10,202 nucleotides of DNA. Source: a virus. Its lineage: Duplodnaviria; Heunggongvirae; Uroviricota; Caudoviricetes. This document shows positions 1,183-2,718 of this stretch, piece after piece. Position numbers and translations under genes: made by a program. Position 1 is the stretch's first letter. Each line of letters begins with the position of its first letter. The notes beneath the pieces were generated by a model. That model was not told the origin of the DNA. It did no database searches and saw only the letters and a list, made by a program, of their open reading frames with translations. The stretch lies in the IMG/VR virus record IMGVR_UViG_2671180921_000016, one strand, 5' to 3'.

Positions 1183-1455
1183 TCAGTCGCCCGTCCATTT
1201 CCTGAATGCGCTGCCGTTGGGCTGATGCAGTCCCATTTCCTTTTGCGTCCGGCTTATTGCGGCTTTTGCATCACCGTACTGATCCAGCTTCACGGGTGGG
1301 CGTGCTGCCTTACGGATACATTCCGCGCGACGTTTTGCCGCCTGCTCTCGTTCCTTATCAGTGTTCACCAGCCGCATCACCTCAGCCCATCGGGCCGCTG
1401 CTCTCCGGTACAGTCCCTTAGCCTCCAGCTCTTCCGCCTTACTGTCATGAATCAT
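1183..1455 (-). CDS. PerC-family transcriptional regulator-like protein (90 aa from MIHDSKAEELEAKGLYRRAAARWAEVMRL...)
   Basis: N-terminal AEELEAKGLYRRAAARWAEVM matches the conserved PerC/Pch-type motif as I recall it. The ATG at 1455-1453 overlaps the upstream gene's TGA stop (ATGA coupling), so the annotated start is the internal Met of the track ORF 1183-1497. Confidence 0.6.
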   Translation of the reverse strand: MIHDSKAEELEAKGLYRRAAARWAEVMRLVNTDKEREQAAKRRAECIRKAARPPVKLDQYGDAKAAISRTQKEMGLHQPNGSAFRKWTGD

Positions 1456-1976
1456 GCGGCTGGTTTCTCCTTTGCTGCCTGGCGCTGACGTTTGCACCTT
1501 TCATTCAGCGCCATCAGTCGTATTTCTGCGTCCTGCTGTTCCGATGGTGTCACCTCGCCACAAGGCTGGCCTTTCAGGTCGTAACGTGCTCCACCAGCAA
1601 CCAGGGCACGGTAATAGCGCGGACACTGCGCATAAGATGCCAGCGCCGCACGTAATGTACCGAGTCCGAACTTCATCCCCCTGGTAGCGATATCCTGCAT
1701 CATGTCGTCGAATATCCCCACCTTCAGCGGCTTCGGTGCTTCCCTGTTGAACAGGTCAGGCCACAGCTCAATCAGGCGGTTAACCCGTCGGCGGTTTTTG
1801 CGCTGGCGTCTGGTCATATGCCGCCACGGTGTCGCTTCTGTGGACTTCTGTTTATTGTGCTGTTGAGCCTTCTTCTGATTACCGGGCATCACTTTATGTG
1901 CCGATGTGGTTTTGTCCGGCTTTCCACTCCGGCTTTTCATGTCCCCGCTTTTGTGGTTCAGTGTCAGTGTTATCAT
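1452..1976 (-). CDS. FinO/ProQ-family RNA chaperone-like protein
   Basis: KPLKVGIFDDMMQDI ... LRAALASYAQCPRYYRALVAGGARYDLKGQPCGEV closely parallels the ProQ/FinO domain core (PLKIGIF ... [21 protein letters not shown]). Basic N-terminal tail. GAGAG Shine-Dalgarno before ATG 1976. Confidence 0.8.
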   Translation of the reverse strand: MITLTLNHKSGDMKSRSGKPDKTTSAHKVMPGNQKKAQQHNKQKSTEATPWRHMTRRQRKNRRRVNRLIELWPDLFNREAPKPLKVGIFDDMMQDIATRGMKFGLGTLRAALASYAQCPRYYRALVAGGARYDLKGQPCGEVTPSEQQDAEIRLMALNERCKRQRQAAKEKPAA

Positions 1977-2032
1977 TTTTTTCTCTCTTGCATCTTACTT
2001 CTTGTTGCTTACTGCCTGTGTGATGACCTGCC

Positions 2033-2476
2033 TCAGAAGGGCAGGTCATCATCAAAATCACCGGCGTTATTGTCATCAGGTACGCCATGCCCTGCATACT
2101 GTTTCGCTCTGTTCAGTGCATCAGTAGCCTGCCCCTGCTGGCCTTTTTTGCCGCCCGGTCGCACAGTTCGGGCACTGATTACGCTGTCTGCGATAACCTG
2201 CCAGCCCTGCCGCGTTTCGCCGTTCTGGCCTGTCCACTGGCTTACCTGCATGTTACCCGCCACGCTCACCAGTTCGCCTTTGTGGTGTCTGGCCAGTGCG
2301 TCTGCCTGTCTGCCAAATGCCAGGACGGATAACCACATCGTCGCCGTTCCGTCATCGGCCTGGCTGCACGGCAGGGGGACCGCCACACTTGCCATCGCCA
2401 TTTGTGTACCCTTGCTGGTGGTCTTTAACTGCGGGTCAGCCACCAGCCGCCCGTAAGCCGCTATCTGTGCTGTCAT
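2033..2476 (-). CDS. ssb: Single-stranded DNA-binding protein (SSB)-like, 147 aa
   Basis: OB-fold-like N-terminal region and a Gly/Gln-rich linker ending in the acidic tip DFDDDLPF (compare SSB C-terminal DDDIPF). Start ATG overlaps the upstream stop (ATGA at 2473-2476). Confidence 0.75.
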   Translation of the reverse strand: MTAQIAAYGRLVADPQLKTTSKGTQMAMASVAVPLPCSQADDGTATMWLSVLAFGRQADALARHHKGELVSVAGNMQVSQWTGQNGETRQGWQVIADSVISARTVRPGGKKGQQGQATDALNRAKQYAGHGVPDDNNAGDFDDDLPF

Positions 2477-2718
2477 GCTGTCTGCTCTCCGGTTTTAACG
2501 TTGATGGTTGTTACCTGTTCCGCTTCGGCAATCTCCCGTTCTGTCAACGCGGCAAAGTTTGCAGCTGCCGTTGTCATGAAGGCGCTAATCAGTTCGGGAT
2601 GTGCTTTCGCATATCCTTCCCCGGCGTTGCGGTCGATGATTTTTATCGACACCCTTAACCAGTGTTCCGTCAAATCAAGGGCGTGCGATTGTGATTTTTT
2701 TGTGTGCTTCGCTGTCAT
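2473..2718 (-). CDS. Hypothetical 81-aa protein, first gene of the SSB/FinO/PerC operon
   Basis: Track ORF with protein-like composition. Translationally coupled to the SSB gene. Located directly downstream of the iteron region. Confidence 0.5.
   Translation of the reverse strand: MTAKHTKKSQSHALDLTEHWLRVSIKIIDRNAGEGYAKAHPELISAFMTTAAANFAALTEREIAEAEQVTTINVKTGEQTA

Follow-up and report, generated by a model that had tools for sequence, protein, structure and literature searches.

A minus-strand operon with SSB, FinO/ProQ-like and PerC-like genes beside the iteron origin of a predicted PICI-type satellite of Escherichia coli

Results

Gene order and transcription signals

The window, that is, the whole stretch of 10,202 nucleotides that was analysed (IMG/VR record IMGVR_UViG_2671180921_000016), carries on its minus strand a four-gene operon in the order orf81, SSB, FinO/ProQ-like gene and PerC-like gene, located just downstream of an iteron origin (Table 1). 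The origin is flanked by the primase stop codon (3006) and orf81, and its iterons were found as repeat families and inverted pairs in an AT-rich stretch with a GC content of 0.40. The original prediction had placed an operon downstream of the origin, which is borne out, and had described it as SSB, FinO/ProQ and PerC genes all coupled by ATGA overlaps. The overlap between the ProQ-like and PerC-like genes (1455-1452) is present, whereas SSB and the ProQ-like gene are separated by a gap of 56 nt. A second ATGA overlap (2476-2473) is real, yet it joins SSB to the upstream orf81; overlaps are found at only these two junctions. orf81 was absent from that description although it lies within the positions covered by it (1183-2718). 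In the long ORF at 1183-1497, the true gene is that of the 90-aa PerC protein, which starts at 1455. The ATGA coupling of the ProQ-like and PerC-like genes is kept in E. coli, E. ruysiae and Citrobacter. All four genes of the operon are under purifying selection, with dN/dS values of 0.1-0.4 against relatives (0.13-0.20 for SSB and 0.17-0.39 for the ProQ-like and PerC-like genes).

Table 1. Features of the operon and the adjoining replication region
Feature	Position	Strand	Description
Intrinsic terminator	1109-1137	-	10-bp stem followed by T run; ends the operon
PerC-family protein	1183-1455	-	90 aa; last gene of the operon
FinO/ProQ-domain protein	1452-1976	-	174 aa
Hairpin	2022-2050	-	Perfect 11-bp stem, GATGACCTGCC / GGCAGGTCATC; SSB stop codon in loop
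SSB	2033-2476	-	OB fold, linker and C-terminal tip DFDDDLPF; E. coli-like
orf81	2473-2718	-	81 aa; first gene of the operon
Inferred promoter/5' end region	2728-2760	-	TAAAAT -10-like hexamer at 2760-2755; G at 2728
Replication origin	2769-2998		About 12 iterons GGTGAACAG(T) in both orientations
P4-family primase/helicase	3006-4838	-	D5_N, DUF5906 and Pox_D5; directly upstream of the origin
DUF4222/RgdR-like gene	4820-5119		Precedes the primase gene

That the operon is driven by a promoter bordering the origin is an inference only. The G at 2728 is 10 nt upstream of the orf81 ATG, and the 5' end of the ECs1586-ECs1587-pchE RNA of O157 is a G located 10 nt upstream of ECs1586 (PMC7369912). The sequence of this putative promoter region is conserved in strain ABU 83972. 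Consensus scanning of the 5' end of the operon did not reveal a strong sigma-70 site, and by consensus the origin-edge promoter is weak. At the other end, the terminator scan gave a structure with a folding energy of -14.2 kcal/mol (z=-2.5). The hairpin at the SSB stop codon has a folding energy of -23.2 kcal/mol (z=-5.9) and lies near one of the two end points of homology with sister islands. It was considered as a conserved regulatory or binding element and rejected: it is not kept in other ProQ-bearing loci, and the 124 nt around it are present in only 2 of 5426 genomes.

orf81 and SSB

The orf81 protein belongs to phrog_1231 (E=1.5e-48), a family with the PHROG function label 'unknown', and had no match in Pfam, NCBIfam or PADLOC. 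It is 71% identical to Sakai ECs1586, and its homologues, all from Escherichia, Shigella or Citrobacter, are all named 'hypothetical'. Its predicted structure is a helical hairpin with a pLDDT of 66, too uncertain for a meaningful fold search.

The SSB protein matched PF00436 (E=2e-16, 60.3 bits against a cut-off of 26), TIGR00621 (64.5 bits against 53.95) and solved SSB structures. Its OB domain is 76% identical to Sakai ECs1587, and its C-terminus, GDFDDDLPF, fits the acidic-tip pattern (D)DD(I/L)PF. The OB-fold profile and this tip identify the protein as a bacterial SSB, in agreement with the SSB-like protein with an acidic tail that had been proposed.

The FinO/ProQ-like protein

The FinO/ProQ-like protein matched PF04352 (E=1.1e-23, 83.7 bits against a cut-off of 27) and, among solved structures searched by sequence, the N-terminal domain of ProQ, FinO, NMB1681 and RocC. 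The predicted structure has pLDDT values above 85 over residues 50-170. FinO-domain proteins made up all 26 of its significant solved-structure matches in Foldseek, and it superposes on FinO (1dvo) with an rmsd of 1.9 A. At the N-terminus, residues 1-47 are basic and disordered; residues 56-71 form a helix, the FinO domain follows (about 72-170), and a C-terminal Tudor domain is lacking. Residues K85, G87, R109, R120, Y121 and R131 map to K35, G37, R58, R69, Y70 and R80 of the ProQ RNA pocket, of which R58, Y70, R80 and G37 belong to the concave-face pocket for the RNA 3' end (PMC10168233). Across 13 diverse homologues of a family whose members are 50-95% identical, these residues vary little or not at all, whereas the moderate contributors K54 and R62 of ProQ are replaced by L105 and A113. 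The profile, the modelled FinO fold and the conserved 3'-end pocket are together those expected of a member of the FinO/ProQ family. The scores were below the NCBIfam cut-offs for both FinO (PRK13754, 66.3 against 136 bits) and ProQ (PRK04950, 57.6 against 127 bits), and the protein represents a separate clade within the family, orthologous to neither FinO nor ProQ.

By rough estimate, this clade is present in about one-fifth of complete E. coli genomes, where its gene always comes directly behind the primase, origin and SSB of a satellite, and the family was found in about 1000 genomes. It is almost absent from phage, with only 7 distant relatives in 50,697 phage records. A profile scan of species-representative genomes gave one close locus (E. 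ruysiae); the other 14 loci, whose FinO-domain genes are only distantly related and have unrelated surroundings, were left out of the comparison. In the literature searched, no experimental study of satellite-borne FinO-domain proteins was found.

No cognate antisense RNA for the FinO/ProQ-like protein was detectable in the window. When the whole window was compared with Rfam at E values up to 1, the only hits were two chance resemblances to microRNAs below the threshold, one of which falls inside the origin iterons, and Rfam did not find a P4-type CI/C4 RNA in the window despite the presence of an Icd-like gene. The only candidate nearby, a plus-strand RNA of about 100 nt (1007-1105) with a promoter-like site at 971-1000 and a strong terminator at 1076-1105, was considered as a ligand and rejected, as its fold was only modestly more stable than those of shuffled sequences (z=-2.1). 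This region is present in only 3 of 5426 genomes against about 1000 for the protein family, so it is not a conserved partner.

The PerC-like protein

The PerC-like protein matched PF06069 (E=5.2e-34, 116.8 bits against a cut-off of 22.6), with residues 15-102 of the long ORF covering positions 1-88 of the 90 in the profile, and also belongs to phrog_994. Many of its relatives in PHROG are annotated as phage transcriptional activators. The protein is 71-72% identical to its counterpart in ABU 83972, 56-58% to EcCIMP1_025, 54-56% to PchE, 47% to PchA and 32% to a plasmid PerC of EPEC type. It has the short 90-aa form, as does PchE, without the C-terminal extension of PchA, and it has the N-terminal core KAEELEAKGLYRRAAARW in common with PchA. 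A sequence search against solved structures gave no match even at E values up to 10. The score for the ANR (AraC negative regulator) family NF033650 was below the cut-off (18.8 against 32 bits, E=0.0011, residues 6-52), which amounts to a remote resemblance only; this resemblance has also been pointed out by Pick et al. (PMC11773190).

Thus, the profile searches proposed along with the original prediction supported both PerC and FinO/ProQ homology, and the FinO/ProQ assignment was further supported by solved-structure matches and the predicted fold. All three families had been assigned correctly, at the positions in Table 1 and on the minus strand. Since the assignments are correct, the lack of homology that had been named in advance as grounds for giving up the prediction was not found.

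The island and its variable cassette

The genes of the island include those for an integrase, an AlpA-like HTH protein, an Icd-like protein, DUF4222 and a P4-type primase, which upholds the earlier description of a satellite-type island. Over the window, the island matches one of E. coli EC12 at 99.4% identity. The EC12 copy is inserted between tRNA-Ile and nfeF, is 17.3 kb long and is bounded by 65-nt direct repeats of the 3' end of tRNA-Ile (83% identical). A copy of the tRNA-Ile fragment is present in the window at 9305-9350. The annotation of the EC12 island contains no structural genes; PGAP already names its SSB, ProQ-like and PerC-like genes, and a second copy of PerC in it is a pseudogene. 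The features by which PICIs are recognized were all found, namely an integrase, an AlpA-type regulator, a primase, an iteron origin, a length of 10-20 kb and att repeats, and the gene content thus identifies the island as a probable PICI-type satellite of about 17 kb at the tRNA-Ile gene ileX, adjoining nfeF. PADLOC gave no defence-system match for orf81, ProQ, PerC, a 241-aa gene or the downstream genes. A downstream 177-aa protein had a weak HTH match (mad1).

In a megablast search, the four-gene module matched 1881 of 5426 genomes, mostly only in its orf81-SSB part, and these two genes matched together in most of the E. coli genomes hit. The exact four-gene combination was found in only 2 of the 5426 complete genomes. 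Sister islands that occupy the same site show 96-98% identity, which begins at the integrase and runs up to SSB or to the origin edge before the sequences diverge; their homology ends at position 2100 of the window. In the sister island of strain 06-00048, capsid and terminase genes come straight after SSB. The ProQ-PerC pair occurs as a unit in 236 genomes, follows the origin directly, without SSB, in E. ruysiae and Citrobacter, and the ProQ-like gene also occurs without PerC. In ABU 83972, only PerC of these three genes is intact: SSB is truncated and a frameshift disrupts the ProQ-like gene, so SSB and the ProQ-like gene are dispensable for keeping the island in place. Because sister islands share the integrase-SSB part at 96-98% identity and then diverge, orf81-SSB appears to be a conserved replication backbone and ProQ-PerC an exchangeable accessory cassette. 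The 'cargo operon' of the original prediction therefore holds for ProQ-PerC but not for orf81-SSB.

Discussion

In this study, the gene identities, order, couplings, terminator and mosaic structure of an operon on a phage-satellite island were established. The locus is probably best explained as the post-origin operon (1109-2760, minus strand) of a PICI-type satellite, in which a replication backbone is joined to an accessory cassette. The backbone would comprise the integrase, the AlpA-like regulator, the Icd-like gene, DUF4222, the primase, the origin, orf81 and SSB, and the ProQ-PerC cassette would sit at the junction of the replication module and whatever module comes next. A single RNA would begin at the origin edge and, in uninduced cells, be made at a basal level, judging from the homologous transcript mapped by RACE in O157. 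SSB may coat single-stranded DNA at satellite forks, its acidic tip recruiting host SSB partners. The FinO-like protein may bind terminator-type hairpins and 3' tails through the Y121/R131/R109 pocket and stabilize, or promote pairing of, RNAs that come from the island, from the helper phage or from the host. The PerC-like protein would be a small regulator of PchE type that, when expressed, shifts the surface, motility and adhesion programmes of the host.

The closest arrangement is that of OI-51/Sp7 (EcCIEDL933) of O157:H7, which has the same order of RgdR (DUF4222), primase, origin, ECs1586, SSB and PchE. Identities to the genes described here are 71% (orf81), 76% (SSB) and 56% (PerC-like), and both PerC proteins are short, with 90 aa. 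ECs1586, ECs1587 (SSB) and pchE are on one polycistronic RNA by RACE (PMC7369912). The two elements differ in that the present island has a FinO/ProQ gene separating SSB from PerC, in the SSB tail (DFDDDLPF against DGIPF in Sp7), and in the iterons, since Sakai Sp7 has TAACCCGC at the equivalent position together with a different C-terminal part of the primase. In Sp7, capsid and terminase genes follow, and in the present island genes of no known function. With the PICI and cf-PICI of Gram-negative bacteria (PMC6092414) the island shares the integrase, the AlpA-like regulator, the primase, the iteron origin, the length of about 17 kb and the tRNA site; a sister with the same backbone carries capsid genes.

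For islands of this class, the combination of genes is nothing unusual: SSB-PchE on OI-51 was described in 2011, PICIs were reported in 2018 to carry accessory PerC alleles (Fillol-Salom et al. 2018, PMC6092414), and PGAP had already named the genes in EC12. The original prediction expected activation of the LEE, and the general idea that the island may influence host gene expression has published support through homologues, PchE and EcCIMP1_025. If the PerC-like protein were an activator of ler/LEE of the Pch/PerC type, the island would boost virulence gene expression. The strong Pfam match fits this, as do the 47% identity to PchA with its common N-terminal core and the finding that some prophage Pch proteins activate LEE1 (PMC3378721). 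EPEC PerC and EHEC PchA/B/C, which are LEE1 activators, share the Pfam family and the N-terminal core with the present protein, although PerC and PchA are carried on the EAF plasmid or lambdoid prophages and not on a satellite. Because 47% to PchA is not far below 54-56% to PchE, the function of the PerC-like protein is not readable from identity alone.

The tested relatives point the other way. PchE has little effect on the LEE; it alters csgD/curli, flagella and eae, and its overexpression modestly lowers eae (PMC6265319, PMC7369912). EcCIMP1_025 of the PICI EcCIMP1 is a PerC-family protein of similar length and the nearest relative that has been assayed directly with a LEE1 reporter. It silences LEE1-lux dose-dependently, whereas the PerC-like proteins of EcCIEDL933 and EcCICFT073 leave LEE1-lacZ unaffected (Pick et al. 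2025, PMC11773190). The repressor activity is that of EcCIMP1_025 and not of the present protein, and EcCIMP1 differs in its TOPRIM/DUF927 primase and in having neither an SSB nor a ProQ gene beside PerC. The reported effects of PchE and EcCIMP1_025 come mostly from plasmid overexpression. The lack of the PchA C-terminal extension also argues against an activator. Close relatives of the PerC-like protein are found in ABU 83972 and MP1, which have been described as asymptomatic-bacteriuria and commensal isolates. To our knowledge, such lineages are without the LEE. Since the closest tested relatives, PchE and EcCIMP1_025, do not activate and the activators are more distant, activation of the LEE by the PerC-like gene is not supported, and we regard it as quite improbable; judging from the same relatives, it may rather repress.

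It is also conceivable, though we think it unlikely, that all four genes serve only the life cycle of the satellite, by acting in its replication and, once it is induced, in controlling genes of the helper phage or of the satellite itself, and that the host effects of homologues are side effects of overexpression. The genes come immediately after the primase and the origin in every locus examined, the FinO/ProQ-like family is essentially restricted to satellites given its scarcity in phage records, many PHROG relatives of PerC are annotated as phage transcriptional activators, and FinO and FopA regulate transfer or replication of their own element (PMC9977716). Against this, pchE is expressed at a basal level that falls under SOS induction and its deletion has small host phenotypes (PMC6265319, PMC7369912), and ProQ and PerC are each dispensable and swapped among islands with identical backbones, unlike core life-cycle genes. 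A further reading is that the ProQ-PerC cassette is inert hitch-hiking DNA on the way to decay, as the damaged ProQ-like and SSB genes of ABU 83972, the second PerC pseudogene of EC12 and the rarity of the exact four-gene combination would suggest. However, the frames are intact in the window, dN/dS is low for both genes of the cassette, the RNA-pocket residues are invariant across a diverse family and the ATGA coupling is kept between species, and decay is hardly credible. A replication backbone with an accessory cassette remains the reading that we prefer. Where backbones are identical, SSB is followed by ProQ-PerC in some islands and by a capsid module in others, which points to a recombination hot spot at the end of the replication module, at which accessory cassettes are swapped.

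The FinO-like protein has, by the modelled structure, the FinO fold and, by alignment, the 3'-end pocket common to FinO, FopA (pCol1B9), ProQ and RocC. Like FinO of F-like plasmids, it is extended by a basic stretch at the N-terminus and lacks a Tudor domain, and like FinO and FopA it is borne on a mobile element; its carrier, however, is a phage satellite, in which it lies next to the replication module. We tentatively suggest that a satellite-specific FinO clade may provide a dedicated RNA chaperone that controls replication or immunity RNAs of the satellite, or hijacks ProQ-dependent RNAs of the helper phage or the host, although this is somewhat less likely than not to be its role. If it were so, this would be a third use of the FinO domain by mobile elements, after conjugation (FinO) and plasmid copy number (FopA), and, with ProQ and PerC frequently coupled in translation, a single cassette would control the host at both the transcriptional and the post-transcriptional level.

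In conclusion, the three predicted genes are a common, already annotated module of phage-satellite islands of E. coli, and the nearest PerC relatives with test data do not activate the LEE, so that most of what was found is ordinary. As a regulator of a virulence locus the island is probably of little import, with its PerC-like protein in a branch whose tested members do not activate the LEE. The exception is a putative FinO-type RNA-binding protein that is borne on satellites and appears to be common in E. coli. The RNA ligands of this protein would show whether satellites use RNA chaperones on transcripts of the helper phage, of the host or of their own.

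Structure of the element and its operon

The surroundings of the operon agreed with the satellite island of the original prediction: an integrase, an AlpA-type HTH gene, a primase, an iteron origin and tRNA-Ile repeats are present, and in its sequence features the element matches PICI-type phage satellites (PMC6092414). A near-identical island in E. coli EC12 (99.4% identity across the window, 99.8% over the operon region) lies between tRNA-Ile (ileX) and nfeF, is flanked by 65-nt repeats of the tRNA 3' end that are 17.3 kb apart, and is annotated with zero structural genes. A copy of the tRNA 3'-end fragment is found at 9305-9350 of the window.

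Features of the window
Feature	Coordinates	Strand	Remarks
nfeF (host gene)			right end of window
Tyrosine integrase	7694-9124		
AlpA/excisionase-type HTH gene	6633-6851		
Icd-like gene			
DUF4222 gene	4820-5119	-	overlaps primase start
Primase/helicase, P4-family	3006-4838	-	D5_N, DUF5906, Pox_D5; TIGR01613; 3' end at 3006
Iteron origin	2769-2998		about 12 copies of GGTGAACAG(T), both orientations; repeat search
orf81	2718-2473	-	operon gene 1
SSB	2476-2033	-	operon gene 2
FinO/ProQ-domain protein	1976-1452	-	operon gene 3
PerC-family protein	1455-1183	-	operon gene 4
Intrinsic terminator	stem 1137-1113, then T run	-	ends operon; terminator scan and folding

All genes of the operon are on the minus strand. 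The primase is separated from orf81 by an AT-rich spacer of 288 nt (GC 0.40) whose iteron array is the origin downstream of which the operon had been predicted. orf81 had been missed, yet it lies within the stretch assigned to the operon. It had also been stated that all genes are coupled by ATGA overlaps; this is only partly right, because such overlaps exist at the orf81/SSB and ProQ/PerC junctions but SSB and the ProQ-like gene stand 56 nt apart. The dN/dS values of 0.1-0.4 show purifying selection on each of the four genes.

Several other features of the island were recorded. A 394-aa ORF on the minus strand (5439-6623), along which the AT skew flips sign, is probably not a gene; the EC12 annotation has short minus-strand Icd-like genes and three small plus-strand genes there, and the best sigma-70-like site in a scan of window positions 1-7000 (TTGACA-18-TATGTT, 5788-5759, minus strand) lies within it. 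A minus-strand 241-aa ORF (6985-7710; GC 0.31-0.37) between the integrase, which it overlaps by 17 nt, and the AlpA-like gene is kept in sister islands that share the backbone and could be an accessory or regulatory gene; it had no NCBIfam, PHROG or PADLOC match and one chance-level Pfam match under the cut-off (E=0.086). The minus-strand 57-aa gene at 771-944, the next after the operon terminator, had no NCBIfam or PHROG family match; a gene of the same size follows PerC at the same position in Citrobacter, and its upstream region (about 970-1017) is partially conserved in strain ABU 83972 and E. ruysiae. The part of the EC12 island that extends past the left end of the window, on the tRNA side (positions 5400-12200 of that locus), contains a KilA-N gene, an orf81 paralogue (154 nt, 74%) and a second PerC gene, a pseudogene because of an internal stop, along with several repeats 55-96 nt long. 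This suggests that remains of a second, related element lie there in tandem.

Relation to known satellite operons

The PGAP annotation of EC12 already names the SSB, ProQ/FinO and PerC genes, and the module itself is already known. The Sp7/OI-51 island (EcCIEDL933) of O157:H7 strain Sakai has the same order, namely RgdR (a DUF4222 protein), primase, origin, ECs1586, ECs1587 (SSB) and pchE, and ECs1586, ECs1587 and PchE are 71%, 76% and 56% identical to orf81, the SSB and the PerC-like protein, respectively. Flockhart et al. described a conserved SSB gene together with PchE on OI-51 in 2011 (PMC3378721). By 5' RACE in an O157:H7 isolate, ECs1586, ECs1587 and pchE were found on one polycistronic RNA, with the 5' end 10 nt upstream of the ECs1586 gene (PMC7369912). 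In 2018, Fillol-Salom et al. reported E. coli PICIs with PerC alleles (PMC6092414), and a 2026 survey recorded PerC and ProQ/FinO genes on Enterobacter PICIs (PMC13612085). The present operon is a new, ProQ-containing representative of this known type of satellite post-origin operon.

The replication genes of the two islands differ in part. Over its first ~145 residues the window primase is 70% identical to the N-terminus of the Sakai Sp7 primase (6601-8733 of its locus), but the remainder is unrelated: it is D5_N/Pox_D5 in the window, and close relatives of the Sakai primase have a DUF927-type part. Correspondingly, the origins carry different iterons (GGTGAACAG in the window versus TAACCCGC in Sakai Sp7), which points to shuffling of satellite replicases at the domain level. 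On OI-51, type III secretion is activated by the regulator RgdR (ECs1581), which needs the RGD motif R20-G21-D22 for this activity (PMC3378721). It is 32% identical over 93 aa to the DUF4222 protein of the window. Because the latter has P20-G21-A22 in place of RGD, activation of type III secretion by this allele looks unlikely.

Backbone and cassette

The SSB assignment was confirmed (PF00436, E=2e-16; TIGR00621 score above cut-off), and the protein ends in the acidic tail GDFDDDLPF and matched solved SSB structures. orf81 matched phrog_1231, whose PHROG function label is "unknown", and no named family; its database homologues, from Escherichia, Shigella and Citrobacter, are all named hypothetical, and its predicted model is a low-confidence helical hairpin.

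By Megablast, the four-gene module matched 1881 of 5426 complete E. coli genomes; nearly all sampled matches covered orf81-SSB only, and at least 80% of the module was found in only 2 genomes. In the whole-window search, sister islands at the same ileX-nfeF site were 96-98% identical from the integrase onward, with homology breaking off either within the SSB tail (window position 2100) or at the origin edge (about 2697). In strain 06-00048, the integrase-to-SSB backbone (window 2100-10178) is 96.7% identical, and capsid, decoration and terminase genes, the major capsid gene among them, directly follow SSB without ProQ or PerC. This element is a capsid-forming satellite; therefore, one backbone serves both a capsid-forming satellite and the ProQ-PerC island. 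The ATGA-coupled ProQ-PerC pair recurs in 236 genomes, and in E. ruysiae and Citrobacter braakii it directly follows the origin without SSB. ProQ without PerC is the most abundant type and also occurs in Salmonella; PerC without ProQ is found in Sakai and in the PICI EcCIMP1. Extrapolation from an evenly spaced sample put the ProQ-like gene in about three quarters of the 1424 genomes matched; by this rough estimate, around one in five genomes has it. Among 50,697 phage records there were no close relatives, only seven distant matches. The mosaic distribution indicates that orf81-SSB is part of the replication backbone and that the ProQ-PerC pair behind it forms an exchangeable cassette. Thus, the term cargo operon fits ProQ-PerC but not orf81-SSB.

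A perfect 11-bp hairpin (2022-2050, minus strand; -23.2 kcal/mol, z=-5.9) holds the SSB stop codon in its loop and lies about 50-80 nt from the sister-island homology end at 2100. Possible roles are to mark a cassette boundary or to stabilise the mRNA 3' end. The segment is present in just 2 genomes and other ProQ-bearing loci do not conserve the hairpin, which was rejected as an RNA partner of the FinO-like protein on these grounds.

PerC-like protein

The PerC assignment was confirmed (PF06069, E=5e-34); an ANR-family match that stayed below threshold (E=0.0011) echoes a remark by Pick et al. (PMC11773190). The protein is 71-72% identical to the ABU 83972 allele, 67% to a Citrobacter allele, 56-58% to EcCIMP1_025, 54-56% to PchE, which has the same short 90-aa form, 47% to the LEE activator PchA and 32% to an EPEC-type plasmid PerC; PerC, too, is known as a LEE activator. 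With LEE1-lux in C. rodentium, EPEC perC activated whereas EcCIMP1_025 silenced in a dose-dependent manner, and LEE1-lacZ was unaffected by the PerC-like genes of EcCIEDL933 and EcCICFT073 (PMC11773190). PchE has little effect on the LEE (PMC6265319, PMC7369912). Since the nearest tested homologues have little or no effect on the LEE or silence LEE1, LEE activation, which the original prediction had raised by reference to Pch regulators, is unlikely by analogy. PchE overexpression repressed csgD and curli, increased flhDC, fliC and motility, and modestly decreased eae; pchE is expressed at a basal level and repressed by SOS induction (PMC6265319, PMC7369912). By the same analogy, the present allele may plausibly affect some host genes for surface structures and motility.

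FinO/ProQ-like protein

The FinO/ProQ assignment rests on PF04352 (E=1e-23), sequence matches to the solved structures of ProQ-NTD (5nb9), FinO (1dvo), NMB1681 and RocC, and an AlphaFold model built with 13 homologues (pLDDT above 85, residues 50-170). All 26 significant Foldseek matches among solved structures were FinO-domain proteins, with FinO at the top (rmsd 1.9 A). RNA binding by ProQ requires R58, Y70 and R80, and conservation of G37 is universal (PMC10168233). These residues align with R109, Y121, R131 and G87, which vary little or not at all across a family alignment of 50-84% identity; K54 and R62, moderate contributors to RNA binding in ProQ, are not conserved. Judged by fold and pocket, the protein probably binds terminator-type hairpins with a 3' tail. 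Its architecture (an N-terminal region that is basic and disordered, then a helix and the FinO domain, without a Tudor domain) is closer to that of FinO than to that of ProQ. It scores under the NCBIfam cut-offs of both FinO and ProQ and therefore forms a separate clade.

Rfam gave no RNA partner candidate. Around 971-1105 all genes lie on the minus strand; on the plus strand there are a promoter-like site (TTCACA-18-CATTAT, 971-1000) and, further on, a strong terminator (1076-1097 and eight T; -15.1 kcal/mol, z=-4.0). Together they suggest that an RNA of ~100 nt is encoded on the plus strand, between perC and the gene that follows it. As a partner of the FinO-like protein, this candidate (1007-1105) was rejected, its region occurring in just 3 of 5426 genomes. 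We found no experimental study of a satellite-borne FinO-domain protein in the literature searched, and the review of Liao and Smirnov covers phage- and plasmid-encoded members in general terms only (PMC9977716).
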